Below, one piece after another: positions 12,134-34,768 of a stretch of DNA of 64,000 nucleotides. The translations under genes were made by a program, and so were the position numbers. Positions within the stretch are counted from its first letter, which is position 1, and every line of letters starts with the position of its first letter. Source of the DNA: Dehalococcoidia bacterium (GTDB lineage Bacteria; Chloroflexota; Dehalococcoidia; Lucifugimonadales; UBA1123); the NCBI GenBank assembly GCA_965116415.1, contig OZ220693.1, positions 1,580,753-1,644,752 on the forward strand, given 5' to 3'. The notes below the pieces were generated by a model. The model had not been told where the DNA came from and did no database searches. It worked only from the letters and a program-made list of their open reading frames with translations.

Positions 12134-12643
12134 TCAGGAATCCCCAGCGGCAGAGGCCTGGCGCTGTCTGCTCTCCCGGTGTTTGATGAACGCCATGGCC
12201 TGGCGGACGCCCATGCGGCCGATTGGGCCTGAGGCGTACATGGAGCCGAAGACGACTCCGCGGCTTACGAGGAACTCCATGGGCTGGAGGTAGCGTCCGT
12301 GGGTCTTGTCCTCGGTCCACCACGGGGCGAGGGCGGCCACGGTCTCTTCAGTGACACCGTAGGCAATCGGGAAGGTGAGCCCCTCTTCCTCAGCCATTTT
12401 CGCGGCTGTATCGCGGTCCTCGACGGTCGCGCCGATTACGGTCAATCCCATCTCGTCGAGTTCTTCGAGGCTTCTCTGGTAGGTGGCCAACTGCCGCCTG
12501 CAGTACGGTCACCACTCGCCCCTGTAGAACAGCAGCGCGAGGTAGCGGCTGGGGACCTCACTGGGCAGCGTCATGGTCGAGCCGTCTATGAGGTCGAGTT
12601 TGATCTTGGGGAAGCGGTCTCCCTGTACCAGCTTTTCGGTCAT
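12134..12643 (-). CDS. Peroxiredoxin/redoxin-fold selenoprotein (UxxC), in-frame UGA at 12509-12511
   Basis: ATG at 12643 follows AGGAGG. Translation: MTEKLVQGDRFPKIKLDLIDGSTMTLPSEVPSRYLALLFYRGEW-UGA-PYCRRQLATYQRS, running in frame into ORF 12134..12490. The UGA occupies the first Cys of the WCPxC redox motif. Confidence 0.8.
12490..12504 (-). other. Candidate SECIS-like hairpin ACUGC-AGGCG-GCAGU just downstream of the UGA
   Basis: 5-bp stem and a GG-containing loop, starting 5 nt after the UGA. It is short, so only suggestive. Confidence 0.35.
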
Positions 12644-12731
12644 GGTGGTCCTCCTTTGTGATCTTTCGGGAAGTTTAACCTATTCTGGGTACAGGGGTGA
12701 GGGCCCGATACAGGGACTGCACGGGGGCGGT

Positions 12732-12759
12732 GTAGGGGCGGTTCGCGAACCGCCCCTAC
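12732..12759. repeat. Perfect 28-nt palindrome GTAGGGGCGGTTCGCGAACCGCCCCTAC (REP family D)
   Basis: Read directly, between the SBP gene stop and the Prx-like gene start. A related imperfect copy lies at 43128-43154. Confidence 0.8.
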
Positions 12760-12777
12760 AGGCCTGACGTGTGTCCA

Positions 12778-13839
12778 TCATCTCAGGGGTGGGGCGTAGA
12801 TCTGGCCGCCTTTGGGGCAGTCGGTGCAGGGGGCTCCTGACCAGAGGGCGTTTCTGCCGCCCTCTCTTGGGAGGCCGATTCCGGCAGAGCCGAGGTGGCG
12901 TTCGTAGATCTCGCCGTAGTTGCCGACCTGGGATATGACGGTCTGGGCTACGGTGGTCTCCAGTCCCAGGTCGGACTGCCCCCAAGCTCCCTCGGCGCCG
13001 AGCAGGCGCTTTACCTTCACGTTGTTGCCAGAGGCGAGCTCGGCGACGTTGCCGGAGTTGACGCCCAGCGCCTCGCCCTGGATCAGGATGGCCATTACGG
13101 TCTTCACGATGTCGAACCACTGGCTGTCGCCGTGCGGGACGAGAGGAGTGAGCGGCTCCTCAGAGATGATCTCAGGCAGAATCACGTGCTCACTGGGATC
13201 GGGCAGACTGGTCCTGAGAGCCGCCAGCGTGGAGCGGTCGGTCGTGAGGACGTCACAGGTCGCGTTGGTGTAGGCATCGAGTCCGAGGTCGAAGTTCTCG
13301 AAGATGACCGGAGAGTACTCCATCTGGTTCTGTCGGAAGTAGTCCTCCATGTTCAGCTCGCTGGTGGTACCTGACACCGTGCACACCGAGGCTCCACCAA
13401 GTTCGCTTGCGCTCGACACTCCCAGGCGTGTTGGCACCAGGAAGCCCTGGCCGTCGTAGAACATCGTCGGGACGAAGTCGCCCCAAGCGGCGTCCCGCGA
13501 GCTGGTCCACGTGGTCACAAACACGAGCAGGTCGACCTCGCCGGCCTGCATGACGGGGCCGCGCTCCGCTGCGTCGATGGTGCGAAGCTCGACGGCGTTG
13601 GCATCGCCCAGCACGGCAGCCGCCACGGCGCGGCAGAGGTCGATGTCGAATCCGAGGTGGTTGCCGTTCTCATCCAGGAAGCCGAATCCAGGAGTGTCGT
13701 CCAGGGTCGCGCAGACCACCTTGCCGCGGTCTTCTACCAGCGCGAGTCTCGACTCTCCGGTACCATCGTCAGCCTGTGTGCAGGCTACGGCGAATATCGC
13801 CGTGAGCAGGGCAACGGATATAATGGTTAGTGAACGCAT
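12778..13839 (-). CDS. Amino-acid ABC transporter substrate-binding lipoprotein (AapJ/BztA-like), orphan
   Basis: Start at MRSLTIISVALLTAIFAVAC (lipobox). Carries the motif GFDIDLCRAVAAAVLGD. No permease or ATPase gene is adjacent. Confidence 0.8.
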   Translation of the reverse strand: MRSLTIISVALLTAIFAVACTQADDGTGESRLALVEDRGKVVCATLDDTPGFGFLDENGNHLGFDIDLCRAVAAAVLGDANAVELRTIDAAERGPVMQAGEVDLLVFVTTWTSSRDAAWGDFVPTMFYDGQGFLVPTRLGVSSASELGGASVCTVSGTTSELNMEDYFRQNQMEYSPVIFENFDLGLDAYTNATCDVLTTDRSTLAALRTSLPDPSEHVILPEIISEEPLTPLVPHGDSQWFDIVKTVMAILIQGEALGVNSGNVAELASGNNVKVKRLLGAEGAWGQSDLGLETTVAQTVISQVGNYGEIYERHLGSAGIGLPREGGRNALWSGAPCTDCPKGGQIYAPPLR

Positions 13840-13996
13840 TGAACAACCCCTCCCATCCAAAATGCCAGTGTCTACTACCTGTATGCTGTGCAATACCCAA
13901 GCAGTAGCACAAGTACCATTGTAATCCCTTGCTCGGTAGACATTGTCCGTTAGTCGCACAACTTTTGCGATGTCACAGAAGAATTATGGAGTAGCT

Positions 13997-14629
13997 ATGA
14001 ACTTCGACTTCGAAAGTCACCTTGGCGCCTCTGAGCGTTCCGTATCGCTGATTGAGCGCGACGGAAAGCCCGCCAGCGCCGTCACTATCTCACGAAGACT
14101 CACTACGACCGTCGAGGACCTGTGGGACGCCGTTACCAGCGGTGATCGTATCCCGCGCTGGGCCATGCCGATTAGTGGCGACCTCGAACTCGGCGGTCGC
14201 TACCAGCTGGAGGCCAACGCGGGAGGCGAAATCACGGAGTGCGTGCGGCTGTCGCACTACTCGGTAACGTGGGAGTTCGCCGGTGACCTTAGCTGGGTGG
14301 ATATACGCGTCGTGGACGAAGGAGCGGGATGCTTGCGGCTATCGGTAACGCATACGGCACACCTGTCGCCACACTGGGACGAGTACGGCCCGGGCGCGGT
14401 CGGTGTCGGATGGGAGTCGGCTCTGGCCGGTCTGGCCCTCCATCTTGAGTTCCCGAATGAACCAAAGCCCGACGAGATGGAGTTCGTCACCTCTCCGGAA
14501 GGCAAGGCGTTCATCACAGGCAGCAGCGAGGCGTGGGGCGAGGCGGCTGTCGCAGCCGGGACAGACCCAGACGCTGCGAGCGCGGCAGTGCGCAGCACGA
14601 CCGCGTTCTACACGGGGGAGTCTGCCTAG
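13997..14629 (+). CDS. SRPBCC-superfamily protein (AHSA1-like)
   Basis: Motifs LWDAVTSGDRIPRWAMP, WEFAGD and VGWESALAGLALHL. Start at MNFDFESH. Confidence 0.7.
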   Translation: MNFDFESHLGASERSVSLIERDGKPASAVTISRRLTTTVEDLWDAVTSGDRIPRWAMPISGDLELGGRYQLEANAGGEITECVRLSHYSVTWEFAGDLSWVDIRVVDEGAGCLRLSVTHTAHLSPHWDEYGPGAVGVGWESALAGLALHLEFPNEPKPDEMEFVTSPEGKAFITGSSEAWGEAAVAAGTDPDAASAAVRSTTAFYTGESA

Positions 14630-14688
14630 CTTCCTAGCGCGAGTGCATCGGAATGTTCTAATGCGTCGTCCCCCCAGGGGCCAAATTC

Positions 14689-14931
14689 GTGAAGACTGAT
14701 CCGAAACCAAGCGTAATTCTCATCGGAGGGACATCGCACGTCGGCAAGAGCATCTTCGACTACCTGGTGGAGCTGACCACCGAGGCAGATGTCCGCGCCC
14801 TCGCACCGGACTTCAGCACGCTTGGGCGGGTGGACACGCGAGGCATCATGGTAACCAACCGGGCAGATAGCTCCGACGTTCTTCCACTACCCATGCTAGA
14901 ATGGTCGTCATCCAGCGAAATGTCTGTGTAG
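14689..14931 (+). pseudogene. Chimeric remnant: P-loop N-terminal scrap fused to an internal PhzF fragment
   Basis: ILIGGTSHVGKS fits Walker A GxxxxGKS. From GKSIFDYLVELT onward, nt 14743-14873 repeat nt 19015-19143 of the intact PhzF gene. The junction is at the shared GKS codons. Confidence 0.6.
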
Positions 14932-14963
14932 ACGCGAAAGTTCACAATTAACCTTATGAATGA

Positions 14964-16490
14964 GTGAAAGGCATGGCCAAGGACTCTGAAACGCGACGGC
15001 TGAGATACAAACAGGTGGGCATGCTCATGCGTGCCTACCGCCATGCTTACACCCGAGAGGGCACAAACAGGAGGCTCTCACAGAGCGGTCTGCTGGACCT
15101 CATGGGCCAGGTGGATCCAGAGTACCTGGACAGACACGACCACTCGACGGTCGCCAGGTGGGAGTCCGGCGCCAGGCGTCCCACCAGGGAGAGGCTGGTG
15201 GTGTTCGGACAGGCACTGGACCTGGCCCCCGCCGAGATCGACGGTCTGTTGCGCCTGGCCGGCCTGGATACGGACTTTGCGACGCCGGAGACCGCCTATG
15301 AGCATTATGAGCAGGCCGACGCTGACGAAGAGCCAGTGTTGGCAAATGTGGCTGAACGCTCGGCACTAGAGGAGGACGAAGCGGCTCCCGATGCCTTTCG
15401 CGGCCGCCATGCGTTGCGTTATGCCTTGTCCCGGTTTGTGTTGCCCAGTTTGTGCATCTCTCTTGCCGGATACTTTATAGCGACACTTGGCTGGAACTCA
15501 TCAGTCACACTGGCCCTGTATGCGGTAGTCGCGCTGTCCGCACTGCTTGCACTGGGATTCTGGCGATTGCGACGGTCGGACGACCTGGCGGACCTGCTCT
15601 TCGTTACGGTGTTCTTCCTGCTGAGCATACACGTGTTGAATGCGCCGCTGACCCGGATGGACATATACGGACTGTACAACCTCGGCGGCCTTGCGGGCAC
15701 CTCGATACCCTTCACACTGAGCCTGATCATGAACCTGCTCGTGGCCACTGTAGCAGGGCTGATGTTCGTTCTTCTCCGAAGATGGCAGTACTCCGATCCC
15801 TCAGCAAGGAGGAGCGTATACAGCCGGGCCGCCTGGATTGTGCTTCCACCGATCGCCTTCGTTTACGCCTTTATCCTGGCGTTTGCCAATGTCGGCATAT
15901 GGATACTAGGTCTGGTGCTGCTGGTCCCGCTGGCGGGTGCGTTCATCACTCTGGTGGTACTTCGCGACAGGGAAGTCAGCATAGGTGAGTGGGACCGGAA
16001 GTTCCTGCTCTGCACCACGGTGGCGGTCGTGATAGTCCTGTCAGTCATTGGCCTTGCCACGATTCTGTTGGCATGGATGCAGCCGATCCAGTACCCAGAG
16101 GGCCAAGGCCTATTCTACCCGCAGGACCTGGATTTCGACACCCTCGGGTACTCCGCCAGTGAGCACGGAAAGCGCTCCATGATGGCCGTTATCTGGATCT
16201 TATTGGCCACATTCGCGTACATGGTCATCGTTATTGCGGGCAAGCTGATCGTCACGATCTACCGGTTGGATGGTGGAGACTCATCCCTGGCTGCATCGGC
16301 CGCGGCTGTGGCGACGGGAAATGGCACCATCCTACAGCGGACCAGAAGGCGCTCTCGTCTCGACTTGCACCATTGGGCCGGCCTCCTGTCAGTCCCTGGA
16401 ATACTCAGGCTACGCGGCGGTCGCATTCGTTCTCCGTCCGGTTGGGTTCGGCGTAGTAGGTTCCGACGGCGCAGGACTGTTGGGGCCTGA
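14964..16490 (+). CDS. Membrane protein with N-terminal XRE-like HTH domain and polytopic C-terminal region
   Basis: HSTVARWESGARRPTRERLVVFGQALDL is followed by about 8 hydrophobic segments. The Arg-rich tail may be run-on. Confidence 0.6.
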   Translation: MKGMAKDSETRRLRYKQVGMLMRAYRHAYTREGTNRRLSQSGLLDLMGQVDPEYLDRHDHSTVARWESGARRPTRERLVVFGQALDLAPAEIDGLLRLAGLDTDFATPETAYEHYEQADADEEPVLANVAERSALEEDEAAPDAFRGRHALRYALSRFVLPSLCISLAGYFIATLGWNSSVTLALYAVVALSALLALGFWRLRRSDDLADLLFVTVFFLLSIHVLNAPLTRMDIYGLYNLGGLAGTSIPFTLSLIMNLLVATVAGLMFVLLRRWQYSDPSARRSVYSRAAWIVLPPIAFVYAFILAFANVGIWILGLVLLVPLAGAFITLVVLRDREVSIGEWDRKFLLCTTVAVVIVLSVIGLATILLAWMQPIQYPEGQGLFYPQDLDFDTLGYSASEHGKRSMMAVIWILLATFAYMVIVIAGKLIVTIYRLDGGDSSLAASAAAVATGNGTILQRTRRRSRLDLHHWAGLLSVPGILRLRGGRIRSPSGWVRRSRFRRRRTVGA

Positions 16491-16622
16491 TGCCGAACCA
16501 CGCGACTCTGTGGACGCGCTCACCGTGGCAGACAGATACCTGTTTGTTGCGAATCGACGAGCGGCCCCACCATGGACATCGCGTATCCCCGACCGAGGAC
16601 CGCACTTCAGGTTAACGCTCTC

Positions 16623-17771
16623 ATGAAACGCTCACTGCGCAGAGTGGGACTCTGGATACTCCGCTGTTCGGTGGTGACTCTAGCGCTGCTGATACTGTTC
16701 ATCTTGGTCACCCCGCAGGGGCGCACCGGGTTTAATACCGTGCTGTTCGTCATGCAGGTGCTGGATCTACCGATCAAACCCCAGTCCTGGGTCACCGGAG
16801 AGCCTCTCCGTCACCAGGTGGAACACGGCTTGGGTGGCGCCCACGTTGCTGAGGTGTACCGCCCGTCGGGAGATGGAACCCGGGCCGCGGTGCTCCTGTC
16901 CGTGGGCGCCACCACTGAGGGACTGGATAATCCGGCCGTCGTCATGCTCGGCGACGCCATGGCCCGGGCGGGCTACGTGACGATGCTGCACTGGTCCCCA
17001 GCGATGGGACTCGAGTCGAATATGGATCCGTCGGAGGTGGCAGCACTTGTCGAGGCGTTCGTGTACCTGGAGGGACTCGAATACGTTGACCCGGAGCGAG
17101 TTGGCATCGGCGGTTTCTGCGTCGGGGCCTCCCTGGCGCTGGTCGCAGCAGCCGATCCCAAGATCCGCGACCGCGTGGACTTCGTCAACGCCTTTGGCCC
17201 GTTCTACGATGCCGGGGCACTGCTACAGCAGGCCGTATCCCGAACGGTTGTATACGATGGAGAGACCACTCCGTGGCAGCCTGACACACGCACACTGCAA
17301 TTCCTGGCAACCGAGCTGATCGAGAACCTGGACGATCCATCGGATGTGCAGATGTTGACGCGCCACTACCTGGACGACCAGCCTTCCAGTACGATTGAGC
17401 CAGACAGGCTTTCCTCGCAGGGGAAGATCGTGGCACGTCTGCTGGATGGAGTACAGCCGCATGAGGCCGAGGCGCTCTACGAGATGCTGCCCCCTTCCCT
17501 TCACGAAGATCTCGCCATGATCTCACCGTCCACTCACGTCCAGGGCCTCAGAGCTCGACTGCTGGTCATGCACGACCGATACGATGAGTACATACCAGCC
17601 GCAGAGTCCCGCCGTCTTTTGGAGGCGACCGAGGACCGGCTAGACGTCTACTACACGGAGTTCATTGCGTTCGATCACCTGCTGCCCGACGATGACGGTA
17701 TCCTCTCACAGCTGAGAGAAGCATACGTTACGTACCGCCACATGTATTCCATCCTTCGCATAGCAGTCTGA
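16623..17771 (+). CDS. Alpha/beta hydrolase, dienelactone-hydrolase-like, with N-terminal TM anchor
   Basis: Start at MKRSLRRVGLWIL. The nucleophile elbow GIGGFCVGAS (GxCxG) is as in dienelactone hydrolases. Confidence 0.65.
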   Translation: MKRSLRRVGLWILRCSVVTLALLILFILVTPQGRTGFNTVLFVMQVLDLPIKPQSWVTGEPLRHQVEHGLGGAHVAEVYRPSGDGTRAAVLLSVGATTEGLDNPAVVMLGDAMARAGYVTMLHWSPAMGLESNMDPSEVAALVEAFVYLEGLEYVDPERVGIGGFCVGASLALVAAADPKIRDRVDFVNAFGPFYDAGALLQQAVSRTVVYDGETTPWQPDTRTLQFLATELIENLDDPSDVQMLTRHYLDDQPSSTIEPDRLSSQGKIVARLLDGVQPHEAEALYEMLPPSLHEDLAMISPSTHVQGLRARLLVMHDRYDEYIPAAESRRLLEATEDRLDVYYTEFIAFDHLLPDDDGILSQLREAYVTYRHMYSILRIAV

Positions 17772-17819
17772 CAAGAGTCTCTGCTCGTCCTTGAGGGTCA
17801 AAAGTCAAAGGCTATCATT

Positions 17820-18018
17820 CTTGAGTTCCCGAATGAACCAAAGCCCGACGAGATGGAGTTCGTCACCTCTCTGGAAGGCAAGGCGTTCATCTCAGGCAGC
17901 AGCGAGGCGTGGGGCGAGGCGGCTGTCGCAGCCGGGACAGACCCCGATGCTGCGAGCGCGGCAGTGCGCAGTACGACCGCGTTCTACACAGGGGAGTCTG
18001 CCGGGCCTTCCTGACGCG
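17820..18018 (+). pseudogene. Duplicated 3' fragment of the SRPBCC gene (copy of 14444-14640)
   Basis: About 195 bp, near-identical by eye with a handful of substitutions. There is no upstream coding part. Confidence 0.85.
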
Positions 18019-18041
18019 AAGGCGAAGTGAGAACCGGCAAG

Positions 18042-18467: not shown

Positions 18468-18564
18468 GGCAGTCCTCCTGTAGAATTACACTCGCAGATC
18501 GTTTCGGATGATGTAAAGGCTGACCGAGATATTCTCGTCTATAGTTAGCGAACCGATTTCAGAG

Positions 18565-22920: not shown

Positions 22921-22984
22921 ACGTTCGTGGTGAGCCTGTCGAACCATGAACGGGCAGCCCTTCGACAAGCTCAGGGCGAACGGC
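22921..22984. repeat. Family B element in palindromic form (two inverted half-sites)
   Basis: CGTTCGTGGTGAGCCTGTCGAACC at 22922-22945 is the imperfect reverse complement of CCCTTCGACAAGCTCAGGGCGAACGG at 22958-22983. Confidence 0.75.
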
Positions 22985-23029
22985 ATCGGGCGATTGATCG
23001 AAAGATCCTGGATCGGCTTAGAGGATCGC

Positions 23030-24253
23030 ATGCAAGAGTATGAAGTCACCGGAATAGACCCCAGAACGCTAGGTCGCCGAATCCAGGAAGCGCGTAAGGC
23101 GAGGGGGCTCACCCAGCAGGATGTTGCGGAAGCGCTTTCCCTGGCGCGAACGACGGTTACGGCCCTGGAGAAGGGTGAGCGCCGGGTCCGTCCTGACGAG
23201 ATAATAAGTATGGCTGGTCTCTTCGGCAGGTCGGTGAGTGATCTAGTCGGCTCCAGAGAACCGATGTCGGACTTTGCCGTTCAGTTTCGCACTGCCATAG
23301 GCGCAGTTGGGTCGCATCAGGCTCAAGAGGATATGGCTCAGGCTGTCCAGGAGTTCCAGAGACTGTGTGAAGATTATCTGTACCTTGAGAACCTGAATAG
23401 GTCGGCTCTCCATCAGAACTACATCTCAGAGTATCCGATTAACGTCGCCTCACCTGAAGATGCGGCAGAAGACGTGGCGTCGGCAGAACGCAACAGATTA
23501 GGCCTTGGAGACGGACCGGTCCTGAACCTAAGAGAAGTGCTTGAGAACGACGTCGCCACGCGCGTCTTCTCCATGAAGCTGCCGTCGCGAGTCGCTGGAA
23601 TCTTCTCCTACAGCCAGGAGCTTGGGGGCTGCATCGCAGTAAACGCTCAACACCCGGAGGAACGACGCCGGTGGTCGATGGCCCACGAATATGGGCACTT
23701 CCTGACTAGCCGCTTCCAATCGGAGATTTCGATACTGGGTGCGTACAGGCGTGTTCCGGCAAAGGAGAGATTCGCGGACTCTTTCGCTGGCTGCTTCCTC
23801 ATGCCAGCGGCGGGTCTGAGACGCAGATTCAATGAGATTTCTCGCGCAGCGGCTGGTGAGATGACCGTGGCGGACGTATGCCGAATCGCCCACTACTACT
23901 TCGTATCGATCGAGGCGGTTACCCTACGCCTGGAGGAGTTGAGACTCCTTCCGGGAGGGACATGGGACAGGCTCAAGGACAGAGGATTCAGGGTACGAGA
24001 GGCCCAGGAACAGTTGGGACTGTCGCCCCGCAGCGACAGCGATCAGTTACTCCCGTTACGCTACCAATTCCTAGCTATCCGTTCTTATGAGGAGGGCCAG
24101 CTCACTGAGGGAGAGCTTGCTCGGCTTCTGAGGACTGACCGAGTATCGGCCAGACGGACTGTACAGAGGCTGACCCACACGCCACACCTTCGCGATGAAG
24201 GAGACCTTCAATCGCTGTCCATAGACCTCGCCGGCAGCCTACTTGGGCAGTGA
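23030..24253 (+). CDS. Fused XRE-HTH / ImmA-IrrE (COG2856, DUF955) zinc metallopeptidase
   Basis: HTH LTQQDVAEALSLARTTVTALEKGER, then HExxH as SMAHEYGHF. The start is taken at MQEYEV (23030) because 22946-23029 is REP sequence. Confidence 0.85.
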   Translation: MQEYEVTGIDPRTLGRRIQEARKARGLTQQDVAEALSLARTTVTALEKGERRVRPDEIISMAGLFGRSVSDLVGSREPMSDFAVQFRTAIGAVGSHQAQEDMAQAVQEFQRLCEDYLYLENLNRSALHQNYISEYPINVASPEDAAEDVASAERNRLGLGDGPVLNLREVLENDVATRVFSMKLPSRVAGIFSYSQELGGCIAVNAQHPEERRRWSMAHEYGHFLTSRFQSEISILGAYRRVPAKERFADSFAGCFLMPAAGLRRRFNEISRAAAGEMTVADVCRIAHYYFVSIEAVTLRLEELRLLPGGTWDRLKDRGFRVREAQEQLGLSPRSDSDQLLPLRYQFLAIRSYEEGQLTEGELARLLRTDRVSARRTVQRLTHTPHLRDEGDLQSLSIDLAGSLLGQ

Positions 24254-24274
24254 TCTCAGGGTAAACAGGCAGCC

Positions 24275-24832
24275 GTGACGAACTCCGCTGAGTGTCTCCT
24301 ATTGGATGCCAGTTGTCTCCTCAACCTGTATGCAACCGGGAGTCTCCGAGAGATCGCCGCTGCAACCGATACACGGTTCCAGGTAGCCCAGTATGTGCTC
24401 GAACACGAAGCTATCTACACATGGGTACCCAACGCCCAAAGTGGACATGACGAGCCAGTGCCCGTAGACGTATCTCCTCTGATTGCTGAGGGTTTGATCC
24501 ACGTCATCGATCTTAAAGACTTAGCGGAACAGGCCACATTCGTCGAACTGGCTACCCTGGTTGACGATGGCGAGGCTGTGACCGGCGCGCTCGCCTTCCA
24601 TCGCGGCTGCTCTGTCGCAACTGATGATCGCAAGGCCCGTCGAGTATTTGGAGAACGCATTCCGTCAGTGCAATTGGTTTCAACTCTGGAACTGCTGAGA
24701 CTGTGGGCCGACGATGGACAAGTTACAGACATCAACCTGCGCATGGCCATGATCGCAATGCGTTCGGGGGCCAGCTATATCCCCAGCAGAAGGGACCCTC
24801 TCTTTGAGTGGTGGGCAGAGATCACAAGATAA
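24275..24832 (+). CDS. PIN-like domain protein (putative toxin nuclease)
   Basis: Acidic positions LLLDASCL, DDGEA and VATDDRKA are spaced as in PIN domains. It lies 21 nt downstream of the ImmA gene. Confidence 0.65.
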   Translation: MTNSAECLLLDASCLLNLYATGSLREIAAATDTRFQVAQYVLEHEAIYTWVPNAQSGHDEPVPVDVSPLIAEGLIHVIDLKDLAEQATFVELATLVDDGEAVTGALAFHRGCSVATDDRKARRVFGERIPSVQLVSTLELLRLWADDGQVTDINLRMAMIAMRSGASYIPSRRDPLFEWWAEITR

Positions 24833-25277: not shown

Positions 25278-25937
25278 CTAGCCCCTTGCGGCCCTCACCT
25301 TTTCGAGCATCACGGGCGGCAACGGAAACACCCAGCCCCTGTTCGTGATAATCTCACGCGTCAAAGCAGCGGGGACCGCCACGATAATCTCCGGCTCGAT
25401 GGAGAACCTTCCGTCGAACCCTCCTAACGCGCTCCTCGCATGGATCCCGGCAAATCCTCCTGCGTCGACGCCGTTCTCAGCGTAGTCGCTTCGCGGCCCC
25501 CCGAAGACCGAGTGCCACCTGAACGAGAAGCCGTTCGTGACAGCGGGTGCGGCACTGCTGGCCCCGCCACCGGGCGAGACCACCATGCCCAGCGCCTTCA
25601 CGGTGTACAGAACGTCGTTTAGGTCGCCCTCGCCGCCGCAGCTCAGCGTCCAGTGGAGCCTGCGGATCAGCACGTCGGCCGCATCCTGCGCCCCCTGTTG
25701 ACCATGCTCAATGCGCTCTCCGTCGTCGTTCATCGGAAGTGTCCCGCCGGTCGTGCCGGACAGGTAGACGAGGCCGCTCTCATGGACGACGGCTCCCGCT
25801 ATTCCCGCGCCCTCCAGCGACACGACATCCTCATCGAAGCTGCCGAGTTCAATGCCGATCTCCCGAATCCTGTCGTAGACGTCGAAGTCACGTCGCAGCT
25901 CGTCGGGTAGTAGGGCTTCGTCGTAGTGCTTGCTCAT
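25278..25937 (-). CDS. RidA/YjgF-like domain protein (tentative)
   Basis: LVYLSGTTGG...QGAQDAADVLIRRL...DVLYTVKALGMV resembles the RidA pattern. AGGAGG lies upstream. At 219 aa it is longer than canonical RidA. Confidence 0.45.
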   Translation of the reverse strand: MSKHYDEALLPDELRRDFDVYDRIREIGIELGSFDEDVVSLEGAGIAGAVVHESGLVYLSGTTGGTLPMNDDGERIEHGQQGAQDAADVLIRRLHWTLSCGGEGDLNDVLYTVKALGMVVSPGGGASSAAPAVTNGFSFRWHSVFGGPRSDYAENGVDAGGFAGIHARSALGGFDGRFSIEPEIIVAVPAALTREIITNRGWVFPLPPVMLEKVRAARG

Positions 25938-25968
25938 GTTTGATTCCTCCTAAAGTTAGGTCTGACAT

Positions 25969-26850
25969 TCAGTTCACGCGCACGTACTTGTCCACGCTCT
26001 GGGCTATTGTAAGTCCGAGATAGATGTCGCCCTGGGAGTCGACCCATAGGCCGTGGGCGTGGCGGTGCAGATTCCAGCGCGCCAGCACCTCGCCGTTGCC
26101 GTCCCGGATGGCGACGCGAGAGGGATTTCCGTCGGCCGCCTGCTCACAGATGTAGAAGAGGCCGTCCGGGCCCTGAGAAATGTCGTTCGGCCCACCCATG
26201 CCGGTCCACTCGGTGATGAACTCGCCTTCGCTGTCGAATATCTGGATGCGGCGATTGGCGCGGTCGCAGACGTAGACCTTCTCGTCTGCATCCACCATCA
26301 GGCTGTGCGGCAGGTGGAACTCACCCGGCTCTGAGCTCCCCGGCGTACCCCAGGACTTGATTAGATCGCCCCCGCCGGTGAACTTGTGAATCCGGCTGTT
26401 TCGATAGCCGTCGGAGACGTAGATGTTGCCGGAGGGGCCCTTCACCATCTCTGTGGGATAGTTGAAAGGCCCGGCGGCGCGGGGGACCATGTCACCGGGT
26501 CCCTCACAGCCGGTGTCGGAGTGAACGCCCCGATCTCCCAGCACCATCAGAGGGCGGCCCTCCAGGGTGTATGACATCGCTACGGAGTCGTCACGATCAG
26601 TCAGGTAAATGACATCGTCGCTGATGCTCATGCCGTGCGGCGAATTGATATTGCCGTGTCCCCAGGCGTCCAGGTAGTTGCCCTCCCTGTCGAAGACGAC
26701 TACGGGCGGGTCGGTCCGCTGGAAGACGTAGAGCCTGTCCTGCGAGTCGGTAGCGACGGTGCTGACTACGTCGAACGCCTCGCCGTCGGGGAGCTTGGGG
26801 AAATCCTGGGCAAGTTCGAAAGTGAGGGTATCTGTGCCAACAGAAGTCAT
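25969..26850 (-). CDS. NHL-repeat beta-propeller, peptidyl-alpha-hydroxyglycine-lyase-like
   Basis: Repeats such as NIYVSDGYRNSRIHKF and KVYVCDRANRRIQIFD, plus GEFHLPHSL. Confidence 0.8.
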   Translation of the reverse strand: MTSVGTDTLTFELAQDFPKLPDGEAFDVVSTVATDSQDRLYVFQRTDPPVVVFDREGNYLDAWGHGNINSPHGMSISDDVIYLTDRDDSVAMSYTLEGRPLMVLGDRGVHSDTGCEGPGDMVPRAAGPFNYPTEMVKGPSGNIYVSDGYRNSRIHKFTGGGDLIKSWGTPGSSEPGEFHLPHSLMVDADEKVYVCDRANRRIQIFDSEGEFITEWTGMGGPNDISQGPDGLFYICEQAADGNPSRVAIRDGNGEVLARWNLHRHAHGLWVDSQGDIYLGLTIAQSVDKYVRVN

Positions 26851-27019
26851 GAGTCATCTCCCCCAGAGTCAGCCAATCAGATGGCAAGTACGGAACGACG
26901 TAGAGTGTAGCACCGTAGGGAAGACTAGGCTATTCGTTGGCGCAACGGGGCGCATTCACTCCAAGACCTTGAGTGCAGTAGGATAGGGTCATCTGTGCAG
27001 GGGCTATCCTTGCGGCACA

Positions 27020-27547
27020 ATGGAGACCTACATGACGACTGACATTCCTCACGAGGTACATGGTGACGAACTTCCAAAGCGGGTGACGCGACGCACGGTC
27101 GCGGTTGACTGCGAGCACGTCGAGAAGATGCTGCACAAGGGGACTCGCGAACAGTTCGTGATCTACTGCGACGAGCCGGAGAGGATGGGCGGAGAGGACG
27201 CCTATCCCCCACCGCTGACCTACATCACCTCCGGCATCGGGTTTTGACTGCTTACCCAGTTGAAGCGGTACGCTACAATGAGAAAACTCCCGATCACCAA
27301 GGCCCGAGTCCACGTCGAGATGGACTACTACCTGTCTGGCTCAGTGCTTGCCGGAACCGTCACCAGCGGGGTTACAGAGGTGCGCTCCGAGTTCGAGGTG
27401 ACCTCCGACGCTCCTGAGGAAGAGGTAGCCTACGTCATCCGGCTCGCGAAGCAGGGCTGCTTCGCCGAGAGGCTTGTCGAGACCGCCGTGCCCATCAAGA
27501 GCACGCTCAAGCTCAACGGCAAAGAGGCGACAAGCCGCCTGGAGTGA
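27020..27547 (+). CDS. OsmC-family selenoprotein, in-frame UGA at 27245-27247
   Basis: ORFs 27020..27247 and 27260..27547 are in the same frame. The joined reading is AYPPPLTYITSGIGF-UGA-LLTQLKRYA. That is the position of the first conserved OsmC/Ohr Cys, and the second conserved Cys is present (AKQGCFAERL). Confidence 0.75.
27250..27273 (+). other. Candidate SECIS-like stem-loop after the OsmC UGA
   Basis: Hand-folded pairs: G50-C73, C51-G72, U53-A70, A54-U69, C55-G68, C56-G67, C57-G65, with loop AGUUGAA. Imperfect and close to the UGA. Confidence 0.3.
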
Positions 27548-27551
27548 GTGC

Positions 27552-27785: not shown

Positions 27786-29189
27786 ATGCACATGTCCAGC
27801 AACGAACTATCACATATGGCGCACCTCATGCGGAGGGCCGGATTTGGGGCCACGAGGGATGAGCTCGAGCGTCGCGTCGCCGCGGGGTACGAGGCGACCG
27901 TCGAGGACCTGCTCCATCCGGAGAACCAGGAGCCGGTGGACATCTACCAGTTCCTGCGCTACTACCACTTCCAGTGGAAGCCCGGCACCCTGGGGGGCAT
28001 CGGGCAGTCCGGGTGGGTTTGGCGCATGATCAACACGAAGGCGCCGCTCCAGGAGAAGATGTGCCTGTTCTGGCACCAGATCTTCGCGACAGGCGTCTCG
28101 AAGGTCGATCACTACGACGAGATTACCGACATGATCGACATCTTCCGGGAGAAGGGACTGGGGAAGTACAGGGACCTGCTGCTGGACGTCTCCAGGAATC
28201 CAGCGATGCTGTACTGGCTGGACAACCACGAGAACCACGCCACGGCGATCAACGAGAACTGGGGCCGCGAGCTTCTCGAGCTGTTCACGATGGGAGTCGG
28301 CAACTACACGGAAGAGGACGTGTACGAGTGCTCCCGCGCCTTCACAGGCTGGACGATGACGCCCAAGCTGCCGAGGTTCCACATGGGACGCTGGGACTGG
28401 TACTTCGAGTACCGGCCTGACGACCACGACGAGGGTGAGAAGAACTTCCTGGGCCACACCGGCAACTTCAACGGCGAGGACATCATAGACATCGTGCTCG
28501 CCCATCCTGCCACGGCGAGGTTCATCGCGCGGCACCTGTACAACTTCTTCGTCGCCGACGAGGTACAGGTACCGGCATGGGAGCATACGCCGCCACGGGA
28601 TCCAGAGGCCATAGAGATCATCGCCAACGCGCTCACAGAATCGGACTTCGACATACGCCATACGCTGCGCGTGCTGTTCAACTCCGACTTCTTCAAGGAT
28701 GCCCAGTTCACCAAGGTCAAGAACCCGACCGAGGTGGTCATCGGCACGATGAGAATGGTCGGCGGCGGCGAGCTAGCCGGTCCCGAGATATTCGAGTACT
28801 CCAACCACATCACCTACATGGGACAGGAGCTGCTCAATCCGCCGAGCGTGGAGGGATGGCACTCTGGTGTGGAGTGGATCAACAGCGGCTCGCTGATGAA
28901 GCGCGCCAACTTCGTAGCCGACAGGGTCAGCGAGTTAGACCGCCCAGGAGTCAGCGCGATCATCGAGCGAGTGAAGTCCTCAGGCGCGTCGCCGGAGTCG
29001 GCCGTCGACACGTGCCTCGACCTTCTCGGGCCGGTCGTCGTCAAGGACGAGACCCGCGACGAGCTGATAGAGCACGCGTCGGCGCACGGCGATCTCGTCT
29101 GGGATGAGAACAATGAGGCGAAATCGGCACGGCGCGTGGCGGAGCTGCTTCAGCTTATCGTGGCCACTAGGGAGTACCAGTTCGCGTAA
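27786..29189 (+). CDS. DUF1800-family protein (intact paralog)
   Basis: AHLMRRAGFGAT, FWHQIFATG, NENWGRELLELFTMGVGNYTEEDV and GWT motifs; ends REYQFA. Confidence 0.85.
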   Translation: MHMSSNELSHMAHLMRRAGFGATRDELERRVAAGYEATVEDLLHPENQEPVDIYQFLRYYHFQWKPGTLGGIGQSGWVWRMINTKAPLQEKMCLFWHQIFATGVSKVDHYDEITDMIDIFREKGLGKYRDLLLDVSRNPAMLYWLDNHENHATAINENWGRELLELFTMGVGNYTEEDVYECSRAFTGWTMTPKLPRFHMGRWDWYFEYRPDDHDEGEKNFLGHTGNFNGEDIIDIVLAHPATARFIARHLYNFFVADEVQVPAWEHTPPRDPEAIEIIANALTESDFDIRHTLRVLFNSDFFKDAQFTKVKNPTEVVIGTMRMVGGGELAGPEIFEYSNHITYMGQELLNPPSVEGWHSGVEWINSGSLMKRANFVADRVSELDRPGVSAIIERVKSSGASPESAVDTCLDLLGPVVVKDETRDELIEHASAHGDLVWDENNEAKSARRVAELLQLIVATREYQFA

Positions 29190-29220
29190 TCTGCCTGGCT
29201 GTCGTTCTGGCCACATTATG

Positions 29221-29283
29221 CCCCCTCTCCCTTGAGGGAGAGGATTGGGGTCGTGGATGCGCCGTGGCGTGTGAGGGTGAAAA
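29221..29283 (-). repeat. REP-like element, family A, reverse orientation with an enlarged spacer
   Basis: CCCCCTCTCCCTTGAGGGAGAGG...GTGAGGGTGAAAAG. It lies in the DUF1800-NHL intergenic region, which is absent from the 1386-1462 counterpart. Confidence 0.8.
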
Positions 29284-29324
29284 GCCCTTCGTAGGAACCT
29301 ACCAGGAATCATCCGCCACCCTCT

Positions 29325-29350
29325 GGATTCCCGCTTTCGCGGGAATGACG
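29325..29350. repeat. REP-like element, family C (GGATTCCCGCTTTCGCGGGAATGACG)
   Basis: 8-bp stem ATTCCCGC/GCGGGAAT. A degenerate half copy lies at 7198-7216. Confidence 0.75.
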
Positions 29351-29373
29351 AATTAACCCAAGGAATCTGCAAA

Positions 29374-30381
29374 ATGATGCTAACGAAGATAGTTGGAGAA
29401 CGAGTCTACGACTTCAGCCACGTGGTGGGCGGTCGCGACCAGGTTATGGGGCCGCTGGCGCTGGCGTTCGGCCGGGACAACGAGATGTATGCCGTCGTGT
29501 CTGCCCTTGGCGGCGGACGCGGAATAACGAAGTACACGGTCGGGCTCTACCCGGGCGAGGAAGAGCTGGTCCAGCGCATCGGGGAGTCCGGCGAAGGTCC
29601 GGGACAGCTGATGTGGACCTCTGGCATCGCGCTCGACTCGGACTACAACATCTACGTCACAGATGCCATGACCGATCGGATATCTGTGTTCTCGGAGGGC
29701 GGCGACTTCATCCGCTCATTCGGTTCATCTGGAGACGGCGAGGGCCAGTTCGGAAGGCCGTCGGGCATCACAGTCGACCAGGACGACAACCTGCTGGTCG
29801 TCGACACCCTCAACCACCGGGTGCAGAAGCTCGACCGCGATGGCCGCTACCTGTCCGAGTGGGGCAGCGAAGGGTCGGCTCCCGGCCAGTTCAGGTCTCC
29901 CTGGGGCATCACTACGGACGCCGACGGCTGCATCTACGTCGCCGATCACCTGAACCATCGCATCCAGAAGTTCGACGCGGATGCCGGCTTCATGTTCGAG
30001 CTCGGCAGTCACGGCTCGGGCGACTACGAGTTCGATCACCCGTCGGATGTCGCCATAGACCCGGACGGGGACATCTACGTGTGCGACTGGGCCAACCACA
30101 GGGTCCAGGCATACACCGCCGACGGTGAATACGTCACGACGTTCATCGGCGACGCTCAGGAGCTGTCGAAGTGGCAGTTGGAGTACGTCCGCTCCAACCC
30201 AGACGTGTACAAGGCGCGACGCCGGGTCTACACGCTGGAGCCGGAATGGCGCTTCGCCCTGCCGTCAGCGGTCGCGTTCGACAGTCGCAACTCGAGGCTG
30301 ATGGTGGCCGACACCCAACGCTGGCGCATCCAGATCTACAACAAGCTCCACGACTACGCCGACCCGCAGTTTAATATTTGA
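29374..30381 (+). CDS. NHL-repeat six-bladed beta-propeller protein (paralog of 1463..2473)
   Basis: Same repeat architecture and C-terminus as the first copy. Confidence 0.85.
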   Translation: MMLTKIVGERVYDFSHVVGGRDQVMGPLALAFGRDNEMYAVVSALGGGRGITKYTVGLYPGEEELVQRIGESGEGPGQLMWTSGIALDSDYNIYVTDAMTDRISVFSEGGDFIRSFGSSGDGEGQFGRPSGITVDQDDNLLVVDTLNHRVQKLDRDGRYLSEWGSEGSAPGQFRSPWGITTDADGCIYVADHLNHRIQKFDADAGFMFELGSHGSGDYEFDHPSDVAIDPDGDIYVCDWANHRVQAYTADGEYVTTFIGDAQELSKWQLEYVRSNPDVYKARRRVYTLEPEWRFALPSAVAFDSRNSRLMVADTQRWRIQIYNKLHDYADPQFNI

Positions 30382-30401
30382 GGGGTGTGTATCCAGATGG
30401 T

Positions 30402-33400
30402 CTAGTACCTCACTGATCGGAGGATGTGCCGGTCAGTATTCAGGCCTGTGACACCGATGAATCCCATGTATCCGTTAAACGGGGTAAATGCCTCGATGGC
30501 ATGGTCTAAGACCAACGTCCTCTCCATGGCTGCCTCAGCATTCGACAGATAGACATTTACCCGCCCACCTTCGCTGAACTCTATCTCTGCATCAAAGGTC
30601 CCTGAATTCCTAAGTGGCACTTTTAGATTTCTGGTCGCCAGATGAGCAATGTCCAACTCTTCACTGCCTGCACCCAACTCTGTAAGTGAAACGAAATTGC
30701 TCGAAGGGTCGTCAACTGGGAAGTACCAATCGGGAGGCTGCCCTGCTGAGTTCTTGCCAGTGTCGAAGGCGACAAGGAATCCATCGAGAGGACGGGACGC
30801 CCAAGTTCCTCCGCTGTCCAGACTTGGGTCGATACTGTCGAATTCGGGCAAGGTTCTAAGAAGCACGAACCCTAAACCATCAGCTCCATTTCCACCGCCG
30901 ATTTCAAATGAGAAATCTACTCGCAACCCGCTCGTGCTGACGGGTTGCCGATTCAACAGAATACCTAGCTGGATCTTGCGTGCAGGGGTAAGCTCAACTA
31001 CTTCCTCAGATTGCATGTGGCTGGCAGAACCGAAGAGAAGCCAGCGGTCAGCGTCTAGTGGACCACTAAAGTCCTCGTCGACTAACTGACTTGATCCTCC
31101 TTGCTGGGTCGGAGTTGGAGACGCAACAGGCTGATTCGGTGTGCCCACAGGGATGCTTACAGAGTCTACGAACCAACCTTGCTGGTCAGTCACTGATCCG
31201 GCCTTTGGCTGACGCCAACACGGGTCGTAAGCTTGCTCGCACAACCAGCCACGGACCTGTATGGGGAACTTGCCTGCCTGCTTCGGTGTGATACGCAGCA
31301 CCAGGGTCCTGTCATCAGACTGAGACCACGAGGGATCGTCAGACTCCACCAGCAGGTAGTCTGCCGGGAACCGCTCGTTGTCCACCCTGTGGTAGATCAT
31401 CGCGTCCGGCTGGTGGAACGTGACGTTCGACAGCCCAGAGGTGTAGTCGATCTTGTCCACATCGGCGACTCCTGAGGAGTGCGCGTCAGTAGAGCCGCCG
31501 GGGTCGGTAATTGCAGGGAACGACACTGATATGCCGCCGTGCTCACCCGCCTCTTTAACGTCGTACATGCGGACGGTGAGAGTGAAACTCTCGCCCGGCT
31601 CGATTGTCGCCGCGGAGGTCTGCCATTCGAGCCTGAACGGCGCCTCCGCAGTATTAGTCGGAGGAACGACTTTTGGCTGCGGCTCAGGTGGCGGAGTAAC
31701 AGTATCGGTTCCTGGTTCTCGGGTCGTTCCGAATAGTTGGTCTGTGATTTGCTCAGTGCACTTTGGGAGGTCATCCGTGCATAGACGAGCCCATACCTGC
31801 GGTTCATTCCACCTGGTCTCCTCATCAGGGCCGGAAATCCCTGACTCGCCCCACTTGCCCCTGTATGCTACCCACGGCGTATCTTCATCAATGAAGTACA
31901 GGTTGTAGCCGCAGTCACGAGCATCGGGTGAAGTCTCGTGGCAGAGTTGTGTGCCCTCAGACAGTTCGGGCGGGAGGAGTTTACTGCCCATGTCCGATAT
32001 TACGTCCCCGACAATAGAGACTGTCCACCTGTTGTTTTCGACACCCTCGCACATGGTGGTTATCCAGGGCGACTCCTGGATTGTCAGAGGCGTCAGGACT
32101 TGCGTCTGGTTGTCTAAATGAGGAAAGAGGGCAGGCAGCAACGATGCTCCCTGGCCCGCCGAGCTCTGATCGCACACGTTCCACGTGTTGTAGGTCGACG
32201 AATCATCGCTGGGACCGAAGTAGTTGGCGTGCTTGCCCAGTGCTACGTACGCTACGGGGTGGCCATCTTGAGTTTCAGTGTTCGGATAGGATCTGTTCTC
32301 GCTCCAGCCATGCTGGGAGTACGCCACCCTGTCCGGCGGTATGCTCTGTCCGAGAACCGTCGCTGCATCGTCCGCTGCAAACTCAAGCTGTATGAGTTCC
32401 CAGTCCGCCTCGTGCGGAAGGCACATCTCAACATCCGTCACTAAGCTGCATACTGCCTGCTGCTCTGGATTCAGTTCGTCGTAGTGATAGAAGAGGTAGT
32501 ACTGCAGATACAGCCTGCCTTCAACGCCGTCGATGTCTCCGCCATCACGGATGGTCCAGTACACCGTCGATGGATGGAGTGTAGAGTCCTCTATGTTGTC
32601 GGGGACGTCCAGGTAATGGTTTTCGTCGTAGGTGTCGCTGGCAAGTTCATCCAGGCCGGCAATGTCTCCACGTGGGACGATCGTCGCGTCGTTGCCATCC
32701 ATTACGCGGGCCTTGGTCACGAACCCCTCAACGCCCCTGGGCAGGAACCGCTCGTCATGGTGCATACGCAAAACAGGAGCGTACATTTGCGCTAGGTCGC
32801 AGGCCGCCTGCAAGTCCGCGTCGGAGTCCCTCTGTGTGCATCTGTCTTTCTGGTGGAGCGAGAGAAACTCAGTCATATCGTTTGGCGGCTGTACGGACAG
32901 TAATTCTCCGGCTAACCTGTGAACTTCAGGGGCAAGCCAGGCGGCCAGCCGGTGGCCCCCAAATGCCGGTTGAAGAAACATCGACTCATGAAGAGGTACA
33001 CCCACTCGCAGTACGCATTCGGCGTTCTCCCAAGCGTAATCGTCGATGTCTCTGGCGACACTAAAATCGTTGCTCTCGTCAATGTCCAGACTGGCGCTGC
33101 TCGACTCCAGTCTTTTCGCAACACCACTATCGGGGTCATCGGTAACGAACTCCACGTACATGCTGTCCGTGACAGAGTGGTTGGTGACGTAGGCACTTAT
33201 GGTGTCGTCGTACGGTTCTTCCGTCGAACCTATGTGACAGTGCTCGATCTTCGCATCGTCAGAGGTGTAGCTGAGAGTGAGGACATTCCTGACGATGGTC
33301 GAGAACCAGCTCAGATCCGACACCTCGACCCTGATCTCGCTCCTGGACTCATCTACCTCTCCCTCCAGCACTTCCCAGCCCTCCAGGTCTTCGTCCCAGT

Positions 33401-33836
33401 GCAGCGCCAGAACGTCTTCCGCGGTGGTCCCGACCTGCGGCTCGTACGGGATGTGTAGGGTGACGGGCATTGCGAGCTCGGCCTGACCGATTGAGATGTC
33501 GAATACCTTGCCAAGCTGCACACCGGTGGGTACATCCGCCTGGGGCGATTCCACTACAGAGATGGATGCTGTGACAGACTCTTCGACAGCGCCGGCCGGG
33601 ATCTCAATGCGGGCGCCACTCTCATGTTCGAGCGTGCCGGACTCTCCGACGGGAATACTCAGGGAGACTGGCTTCGGATCAGCAGTCGGGACATCTTTCT
33701 TCACCACAGGCCGTATCGGCAATCGAGGGGGCTCCTGTGAGGGCTGTCCTGAGGTCGCGTTCAGCAGCAGGTAGGCTCCAATGGCAACCGTGATGACTAT
33801 CACTACGACTGTGACGATCTGCGGAAGGTTGTTCAT
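30402..33836 (-). CDS. Large membrane-anchored surface protein with Vps62-like central region and C-terminal L-type-lectin-like domain
   Basis: N-terminal TM IVTVVVIVITVAIGAYLL. Central region YLQYYLFYHYDE...PHEADWELIQLEF. C-terminal GGNGADGLGFVLL and GFLVAFDTGKNS resemble legume-lectin motifs. Confidence 0.6.
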   Translation of the reverse strand: MNNLPQIVTVVVIVITVAIGAYLLLNATSGQPSQEPPRLPIRPVVKKDVPTADPKPVSLSIPVGESGTLEHESGARIEIPAGAVEESVTASISVVESPQADVPTGVQLGKVFDISIGQAELAMPVTLHIPYEPQVGTTAEDVLALHWDEDLEGWEVLEGEVDESRSEIRVEVSDLSWFSTIVRNVLTLSYTSDDAKIEHCHIGSTEEPYDDTISAYVTNHSVTDSMYVEFVTDDPDSGVAKRLESSSASLDIDESNDFSVARDIDDYAWENAECVLRVGVPLHESMFLQPAFGGHRLAAWLAPEVHRLAGELLSVQPPNDMTEFLSLHQKDRCTQRDSDADLQAACDLAQMYAPVLRMHHDERFLPRGVEGFVTKARVMDGNDATIVPRGDIAGLDELASDTYDENHYLDVPDNIEDSTLHPSTVYWTIRDGGDIDGVEGRLYLQYYLFYHYDELNPEQQAVCSLVTDVEMCLPHEADWELIQLEFAADDAATVLGQSIPPDRVAYSQHGWSENRSYPNTETQDGHPVAYVALGKHANYFGPSDDSSTYNTWNVCDQSSAGQGASLLPALFPHLDNQTQVLTPLTIQESPWITTMCEGVENNRWTVSIVGDVISDMGSKLLPPELSEGTQLCHETSPDARDCGYNLYFIDEDTPWVAYRGKWGESGISGPDEETRWNEPQVWARLCTDDLPKCTEQITDQLFGTTREPGTDTVTPPPEPQPKVVPPTNTAEAPFRLEWQTSAATIEPGESFTLTVRMYDVKEAGEHGGISVSFPAITDPGGSTDAHSSGVADVDKIDYTSGLSNVTFHQPDAMIYHRVDNERFPADYLLVESDDPSWSQSDDRTLVLRITPKQAGKFPIQVRGWLCEQAYDPCWRQPKAGSVTDQQGWFVDSVSIPVGTPNQPVASPTPTQQGGSSQLVDEDFSGPLDADRWLLFGSASHMQSEEVVELTPARKIQLGILLNRQPVSTSGLRVDFSFEIGGGNGADGLGFVLLRTLPEFDSIDPSLDSGGTWASRPLDGFLVAFDTGKNSAGQPPDWYFPVDDPSSNFVSLTELGAGSEELDIAHLATRNLKVPLRNSGTFDAEIEFSEGGRVNVYLSNAEAAMERTLVLDHAIEAFTPFNGYMGFIGVTGLNTDRHILRSVRY

Positions 33837-34210
33837 GTTCGAGCTCGTTCCCCTGTTCGGTGTCTGATTGATGACATGCTCACCAAGTCATCGGCCATCC
33901 GGGTTCAAATGTCATCGTAGGTAGCACCAAGGATCCTTGGTTCTAGATCTCACGAGTGACAGCGCCACTCCAGCTGCCAAGTTGACGGGCGCACTATTTG
34001 AATATCAGAACCGGGCACCGATGTCTGTGACAGTGGTGTCACACTCTGGCTTGCAGTCGTGACTTTGGGAGGTTAGCTCGACCCTCGGCGGCCGAATTCG
34101 ACAGCCAAGACTCCATGCTGATGGGGCCGACACGCGGCGCTGGCGCGTCGGGGTCTACGGCGGGGTACGGGACTGGAGAGGGACGCGGTTCAACATCTAA
34201 GGGGGCGGAA

Positions 34211-34768
34211 TCACCCCTTGGCTTTCATTAGCCAGGTCTGGTCTCTGGCTGGGCTTGCGAGCCAGGTCTCTACGTCGGACTGGCGCTCGTTGGGGACTTC
34301 GACTCCCAGGCCGTCGGCGAGGCGGGTCATGAAGTTGAACGTGCAGGTGATTAGCACGACCGACAGGATCTGCTCGTCGGTCAGACCGTGCTCCCTGAGC
34401 CTTAAGACGTCGGACTCTTCCATGGCGGCTGGCTCGCGCGTGAGCTTGGTGGCGAAGTCCAGCATGGCCCTCGTCACCGGGTCCAGGTCGGCGTTCCTGT
34501 AGTCGTGCATGACGTGGCTCGCCAACTCGGTATCGTCCGAGACGTTACGGAGAAACTCCCCGTGGGCCATCGTTCAAAATCGGCACTCGTTCTGAACGGA
34601 CACCGCGGTCGCAATCGCCTCTTCCTGCGTTCGAGTGAGCGCAGACGATCCGAACGTTATGGCGTTGTTCAGGTCGTTGACGGCCTTCATCGCGCTGGGG
34701 TTGATCGACATGACGTTGATGACATTCGCCCAGTGCAGCCGTTCGTCAGCTTCGCGTATCCATGACAT
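34211..34768 (-). CDS. AhpD/carboxymuconolactone-decarboxylase-like selenoprotein (CxxU), in-frame UGA at 34574-34576
   Basis: ORFs 34574..34768 and 34211..34570 are in frame. The joined reading is VSVQNECRF-UGA-TMAHGEF, which reproduces the family motif CxxCxxxH with the second Cys replaced by UGA. Confidence 0.8.
34547..34563 (-). other. Candidate SECIS-like hairpin ACGGGG-AGUUU-CUCCGU
   Basis: 6-bp stem including one G-U pair, starting 10 nt after the UGA. Confidence 0.35.

Follow-up and report, generated by a model that had tools for sequence, protein, structure and literature searches.

Selenoprotein genes of three described thiol-redox families, Prx-like, OsmC-like and AhpD-like, predicted within 22.6 kb of a Dehalococcoidia genome

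Selenocysteine (Sec)-containing members of three thiol-redox families were reported from the Sargasso Sea by Zhang, Fomenko and Gladyshev in 2005, namely Prx-like (UXXC), AhpD-like (CXXU) and OsmC-like (UXXT) proteins with predicted Sec insertion sequence (SECIS) elements, the 'Prx-like' family combining a Prx scaffold with a UxxC motif of thioredoxin type (PMC1088965). The Global Ocean Sampling (GOS) survey of Zhang and Gladyshev in 2008 counted 299 AhpD-like 1, 225 Prx-like 1 and 5 OsmC-like selenoproteins (PMC2398784), and a 2026 review tabulates the AhpD-like family as TIGR01926 with CxxU and the OsmC-like family as PF02566 with UxxT (PMC13188914). In addition, BSepDB (2026) places Dehalococcoidia metagenome-assembled genomes (MAGs) with 46 and 49 selenoprotein genes, which passed the Sec-pathway filter of that database, among the richest bacteria, the largest bacterial selenoproteome in it being 63 (PMC13326102). 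Here, we analyzed a 64-kb stretch of a Dehalococcoidia (Chloroflexota) genome (contig OZ220693.1, positions 1,580,753 to 1,644,752, hereafter the window, with a guanine-cytosine (GC) content of ~60%), in which three genes are each interrupted by one in-frame TGA. Our results indicate that these are very probably genuine bacterial selenoprotein genes belonging to the three families described above, and the genes are located in the window as follows:

12134-12643, minus strand: Prx-like gene, with ATG at 12643, stop at 12134 and a single in-frame TGA at 12511-12509.
27020-27547, plus strand: OsmC-like gene, with ATG at 27020 or 27032, stop at 27547 and a single in-frame TGA at 27245-27247.
34211-34768, minus strand: AhpD-like gene, with ATG at 34768, stop at 34211 and a single in-frame TGA at 34576-34574.

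The original prediction, which was made from the letters of the window, held that three unrelated thiol-redox folds had each been recoded for Sec, and this was borne out by the pairing of Sec with Cys and by the conservation of the TGA across species; the interrupted genes it described are all present, with the ends listed above and within the span from 12134 to 34768. Indeed, the single UGA in each of the three mRNAs aligns with a redox Cys of homologous proteins. Two coding-potential scans, which searched for an in-frame TGA flanked on either side by good third-position GC (a U near the protein end being also allowed in one scan), returned these three genes as the only credible cases in the 64 kb, so that the search for in-frame UGA at Cys yields within the window exactly three genes, each with a TGA matching a homologue Cys. 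Further candidates at 1383, 30379, 33888 and 52516 were rejected as ordinary stops. Note that all Pfam and NCBIfam assignments reported below were made on translations in which U had been replaced by C.

The AhpD-like gene has the widest comparative record. It comprises 185 codons and carries the motif C62-x-x-U65-x-x-x-H69 (in the context VQNEC-RF-U-TMAHGEF), and it matches both the Pfam family CMD (3.4e-11) and the NCBIfam model TIGR01926 'peroxidase-related enzyme' (128.1 bits against a cut-off of 81.8). In the TIGR01926-type structures 3c1l and 2pfx of the PDB, the counterpart of U65 is the second Cys of C-x-x-C-x-x-x-H, a position that we take to be the nucleophilic Cys by analogy with AhpD of M. 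tuberculosis. When one genome per GTDB species was scanned (tblastn), the TGA was found in 38 of 38 species representatives from Dehalococcoidia/Chloroflexota, which share 59-94% amino acid identity and were matched across residues 1-184/185, the top match being the Dehalococcoidia MAG OZ247432.1 (94% identity). By comparison, 32 more distant homologues (33-39% identity) from Alpha-, Beta- and Gammaproteobacteria, Rhodococcus and Acidimicrobiia have TGC or TGT at the site. Relative to the described 'AhpD-like 1' CxxU family (TIGR01926), the gene shows the same CMD/AhpD fold, the same C-x-x-U-x-x-x-H motif with Sec at the second Cys and a hairpin after the UGA; no substantive difference was found, and it is the Dehalococcoidia orthologue of that family. 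As a separate observation, a homologue at 51% identity (P0210, locus L174) has a genuine GGC (Gly) codon at the Sec/Cys site, giving CxxG.

The OsmC-like gene carries U at codon 76, counted from the ATG at 27020, in the context TSGIGF-U-LLTQLKRYA, and its second invariant Cys is residue 147. The ATG at 27032 is probably the true start rather than 27020, because a GGAG lies 6 nucleotides upstream of it and relatives align from residue 5. The protein matches the Pfam family OsmC (1.6e-13) and, over positions 2-144 of 144, the NCBIfam model NF041052 'OsmC-related (seleno)protein' (167.6 bits against a cut-off of 95). Full-length homologues read GIGF-C-LLT at the U position, and C147 is invariant in their alignment; likewise, the PDB structure 3cje has Cys where the protein has U76. 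Of the two cysteines conserved in OsmC/Ohr proteins, U76 takes the place of the first, presumably the peroxidatic one. All fetched relatives (L003, L004, L171, L172, L173 and L175) carry the TGA, as GIGF-TGA-LLT. Compared with NF041052 and with the UxxT 'OsmC-like protein' of the Sargasso and GOS surveys, the gene has the same U-L-L-T at the first Cys and retains the second Cys; the family was rare in those surveys (3 and 5 sequences), whereas at least 20 database clusters, mostly fragments, were found here. Concerning its neighborhood, the OsmC-like gene of L171 and L172 is followed by a co-directional NHL-propeller gene and a 219-220-residue hypothetical gene, whereas in the window (25278-27547) the NHL-propeller and hypothetical pair lies upstream of the OsmC-like gene on the opposite strand; this change of side and strand suggests a local inversion around the OsmC-like gene.

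The Prx-like gene comprises 169 codons, with U at codon 45 in the context LALLFYRGEW-U-PYCRRQLATYQ, and is preceded by a strong Shine-Dalgarno sequence, AAAGGAGG. Its product matches the Pfam family AhpC-TSA (8.7e-18, 64.9 bits) and also Redoxin, and no NCBIfam model reaches its cut-off on it. In full-length Cys homologues, several of which (from Chloroflexi) are annotated as members of the redoxin/peroxiredoxin family, the counterpart of the U is the first Cys of W-C-PYC. Note that the metagenome scan with this protein was dominated by distant Cys-type redoxins, so that two usable full-length Cys homologues only were obtained. All fetched relatives (L163-L170, on Mb-scale contigs, representing three distinct sequences at 84%, 68% and 61% identity) carry W-TGA-PYC, and the gene caller splits them in the same manner, into a 44-residue open reading frame (ORF) followed by a fragment of 109-122 residues. 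When true peroxiredoxins (5xbs and 6q5v) are considered, the W-U-PY-C of our protein aligns with their T-PV-C, the U pairing with the conserved Thr of TxxC and C48 taking the peroxidatic position. The claim of the original prediction that each TGA lies at a catalytic Cys therefore calls for one qualification: all three align with a homologue Cys, but the U of the Prx-like protein is not at the peroxidatic position, which C48 occupies. Judged from this alignment, the Prx-like protein has the scaffold of a Prx but a thioredoxin-like UxxC motif, like the 'Prx-like protein' of 2005 and the 'Prx-like 1' of 2008 (pfam00578), with which it shares the AhpC/TSA domain and W-U-P-Y-C. It differs from the canonical Sec-peroxiredoxin in that TxxU is absent, U stands at the Thr position and an ordinary Cys is peroxidatic. 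Assignment to the Sec-peroxiredoxin PrxU (NF040737, TxxU) was considered and rejected, as the score is 15.7 bits against a cut-off of 270 and the U lies three residues upstream of the peroxidatic position.

Downstream of each UGA, a candidate SECIS hairpin was located (apical loop in brackets):

12476-12503, minus strand: Prx-like hairpin, GGC [AGUUG] GCC within a longer interrupted stem, 6 pairs, loop 16 nucleotides after the UGA.
27259-27279, plus strand: OsmC-like hairpin, GUUG-A-AGCG [GUA] CGCU-A-CAAU, 8 pairs, loop 20 nucleotides after the UGA.
34547-34563, minus strand: AhpD-like hairpin, ACGGGGA [GUU] UCUCCGU, 7 pairs, loop 17 nucleotides after the UGA.

In bacterial SECIS elements, as formalized in bSECISearch, the loop lies 16-37 nucleotides from the UGA and a G occupies one of its first two positions. 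The three hairpins match this geometry, all of them having a G within the first two positions of the apical loop. With regard to conservation, the GCAGUUGG core of the Prx-like hairpin is kept in relatives, and an A-to-G change in L168 closes the internal C/A mismatch; the OsmC-like core AGCG-GUA-CGCU is identical in six of six distinct relatives; and in the AhpD-like hairpin 97.7% of the cells from 38 sequences are paired, a share that drops to 41-67% on sliding one strand, with a loop-closing pair that varies between AU (24 sequences), GC (12) and CG (1). By a loose hairpin rule, defined after seeing the data, TGA trinucleotides across the window are followed by a comparable hairpin in 17% of cases, and the passing of all three sites would be an event of ~0.5%. 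These hairpins are conserved and, as far as sequence comparison goes, consistent with SECIS function. Compared with the fdhF paradigm of E. coli, they are alike in the UGA followed by a downstream hairpin, in the G within the first two loop positions and in the distance of 16-20 nucleotides to the loop, but with 6-8 pairs they are short, their thermodynamic stability does not set them apart, and any trans-acting components would lie outside the window.

In the mechanism that we infer for these genes, the hairpin 16-20 nucleotides 3' of each UGA would act as a bacterial SECIS and recruit SelB-GTP-Sec-tRNA(Sec) to the ribosome, and the UGA would be decoded as Sec instead of terminating translation, while UGA elsewhere in the genome would stay an ordinary stop. 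By analogy, the selenol would substitute for the nucleophilic thiol of a two-residue redox center, which may be U45/C48 in the Prx-like protein (as a thioredoxin-like motif), U76/C147 in the OsmC-like protein (at the peroxidatic and resolving positions) and C62/U65 together with H69 in the AhpD-like protein, and the expected outcome would be more reactive peroxide or disulfide reductases. Selenium incorporation into the three proteins is thus a prediction, and several results weigh against it. The hairpins are no more stable than dinucleotide shuffles (z = -0.15, +0.88 and -0.75 for Prx-like, OsmC-like and AhpD-like, respectively). Over the same codons, the fold of AhpD homologues of the Cys type is almost as stable (-9.4 vs -11.0 kcal/mol, p = 0.04), because their codons are GC-rich, and SECIS function would therefore rest on geometry and conservation and not on stability. 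Rfam returned neither a SECIS nor any other RNA family for the whole window at gathering thresholds, or for the AhpD-like site at E<=10. Covariation is thin, with one pair in the AhpD-like hairpin, since the same sequence is also constrained as protein. In addition, selA, selB, selD and selC were not found in the 64-kb window, where no tRNA was found either, and ARAGORN detected ordinary tRNAs only, without tRNA-Sec, in the 42 related loci (~0.7 Mb of relatives' flanks). The case for Sec comes mainly from the Sec/Cys pairing and the cross-species conservation of the TGA, rather than from the hairpins.

Other explanations of the TGAs were also weighed. If the three TGAs were nonsense mutations or sequencing or assembly errors, and the genes accordingly pseudogenes or artefacts, gene callers would be right to read them as stops and to yield fragments, and the unexceptional energies of the hairpins would be unsurprising. 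Yet 38 species share the position of the AhpD-like TGA and conserve the protein sequence on either side of it, the TGA is present in every fetched relative of the Prx-like and OsmC-like genes, and in no case does the stop fall elsewhere than on the codon aligned with Cys. An error-prone assembly with frequent nonsense mutations, which had been named as one of the circumstances that would refute the original prediction, is not what we observed either, given that two other assemblies reproduce the window at 100% identity (over 10.9 kb for L001, an ENA contig, and over 4.9 kb for L002, a Logan assembly of run ERR14375724), that these between them span the OsmC-like and AhpD-like TGAs, and that no other interrupted gene occurs within the 64 kb. 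Pseudogenes or errors thus have next to no probability, this explanation being effectively refuted by the TGA conservation seen in the compared sequences. Alternatively, UGA might specify a standard amino acid with no selenium involved, through Trp or Gly reassignment (codes 4 and 25), near-cognate read-through or SelB-dependent Cys insertion by a tRNA(Sec)-like tRNA(Cys). This would fit the Sec machinery not being seen in the window and the W shown at the site by some database entries (P0001, P0002 and P0152). However, TGA is the ordinary and commonest stop of the window (20 of its 42 confident genes), and therefore the standard code applies and genome-wide reassignment is ruled out. The W entries come from short contigs, and in P0001 (OsmC-like, L175) the codon is TGA, so its W reflects the caller's use of code 4. 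Moreover, the site invariably coincides with the redox Cys and has a conserved hairpin downstream of it, which is the signature of Sec rather than of leaky read-through, and two of the families have curated NCBIfam matches, to NF041052 (named a (seleno)protein) and to TIGR01926. Decoding as a standard amino acid is consequently extremely unlikely, and Sec remains the reading that we retain.

A different question is whether the clustering of the three genes is itself the feature, that is, whether they form a functional selenium-dependent island against peroxide and thiol stress that is co-regulated or co-inherited. All three encode thiol-redox proteins within 22.6 kb, the OsmC-like gene also lies 6.5-9.4 kb from the AhpD-like gene in the two closest relatives (L003 and L004), and a GOS read carries adjacent Prx-like 1 and AhpD-like 2 genes (PMC2398784). 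In addition, two loci from other Chloroflexota genomes have an extra in-frame TGA in a Trx/Prx-like W-U-P-L/V-C motif 0.6-3.3 kb downstream of the AhpD-like gene (L018:11120 and L040:13898), these two UxxC candidates being the extra yield of a scan of relatives' flanks for selenoprotein density that was crude, dependent on third-position GC and non-quantitative. Against an island, the three genes do not share one strand, and the intervals between them, 14.4 kb and 6.7 kb long, are occupied by unrelated genes. The interval between the Prx-like and OsmC-like genes holds a solute-binding protein, AHSA1, a DLH-like hydrolase, a glyoxalase, PhzF, a methyltransferase, DUF402, an FGGY kinase, an ImmA/IrrE protein with a helix-turn-helix (HTH) domain, and the NHL propeller with its hypothetical neighbor, and the interval between the OsmC-like and AhpD-like genes holds DUF1800, an NHL propeller and a 1144-residue orphan ORF. 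Moreover, the remaining 36 Dehalococcoidia/Chloroflexota loci (L005-L040) lack an OsmC-like gene within 10 kb of the AhpD-like gene, the neighborhood of the Prx-like gene differs in each of three relatives, and a CCG-domain neighbor recurs in 3 relatives only, at varying positions; across the relatives' loci, CCG-domain, 1144-residue ORF, NHL and DUF1800 genes show no conserved linkage to the AhpD-like gene.

By our own calculation, ~48 selenoprotein genes (a number taken from the BSepDB counts) placed at random in ~3.5 Mb would give ~1.9 triples within 22.6 kb per genome, as 48 x P(Poisson(0.31) >= 2). The density is therefore unremarkable and the 'locus' is no functional unit, so that the novelty which the original prediction saw in three recoded genes at one locus does not hold, the strands also being different and the proximity not conserved. 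A stress island is accordingly very unlikely, and the Prx-like, OsmC-like and AhpD-like genes would instead be separate transcription units, without an operon, that happen to fall within 22.6 kb. It is likewise very improbable that the whole genome is as rich in Sec genes as the window, with its 3 in 64 kb (one per 21 kb), which would amount to well over 100 selenoproteins; if true, this number would exceed the bacterial maximum in BSepDB (63), through wholesale conversion of Cys to Sec in thiol-redox enzymes.

Other features of the window were also recorded. A two-gene module, consisting of a DUF1800 protein gene followed by a six-bladed NHL-repeat beta-propeller gene, is duplicated at 1-2473 and 27786-30381, the copies being ~83% and 78% identical at the nucleotide level. 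DUF1800 is usually paired with DUF1501, and its NHL partner may be a lineage-specific variant. The 1144-residue ORF (30402-33836, minus strand), located between the OsmC-like and AhpD-like genes, has no Pfam match above cut-off and a weak lectin-like match only; it was detected in the identical assemblies L001 and L002 alone, is missing from L003 and L004 despite their otherwise shared synteny, and looks like a strain-specific insertion. Genes resembling defence or toxin-antitoxin systems occur at 2542-3530, 4906-6285, 22946-24832 and 39275-41643, this set comprising DUF6932 with an HTH protein, an AAA_14/DUF4143 ATPase, an ImmA/IrrE M78 peptidase-HTH followed by a small ORF, HEPN_Swt1 and AbiJ_NTD4. 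Finally, GC is lower in two regions (~50600-53500 and 58540-60350), where the third-position GC signal is also poor and no ORFs other than short, doubtful ones occur; these regions may represent degraded DNA, foreign DNA or non-coding RNA.

Altogether, earlier work has already described the families, their motifs, the mechanism, the mis-annotation and the richness of the lineage in selenoproteins, and the locus raises no open biological question. The original prediction was right to trace the families to marine selenoproteome surveys, as all three motifs are given in the Sargasso paper (PMC1088965) and repeated in the GOS paper (PMC2398784), and its expectation of a selenoprotein-rich organism fits the lineage, since the relatives are Dehalococcoidia MAGs, a group with 46-49 selenoproteins in BSepDB (PMC13326102). 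Its warning that such genes would be mis-annotated as fragments is directly borne out by public gene calls, which split all three genes or give Trp at the TGA. Indeed, database proteins starting just after the TGA measure 93-122 residues for Prx-like, 96-102 for OsmC-like and 118-124 for AhpD-like, the AhpD-like fragments alone forming more than 100 clusters. The Prx-like gene is the most likely of the three to stay unannotated, because no specific NCBIfam model reaches its cut-off. The value of these findings thus lies in annotation: callers applied to long-read Dehalococcoidia MAGs split such genes in two, and on short contigs the UGA is given as Trp. As a result of the truncated entries, functional profiles under-count both the peroxide and thiol-redox capacity and the selenium dependence of an abundant marine or host-associated lineage.

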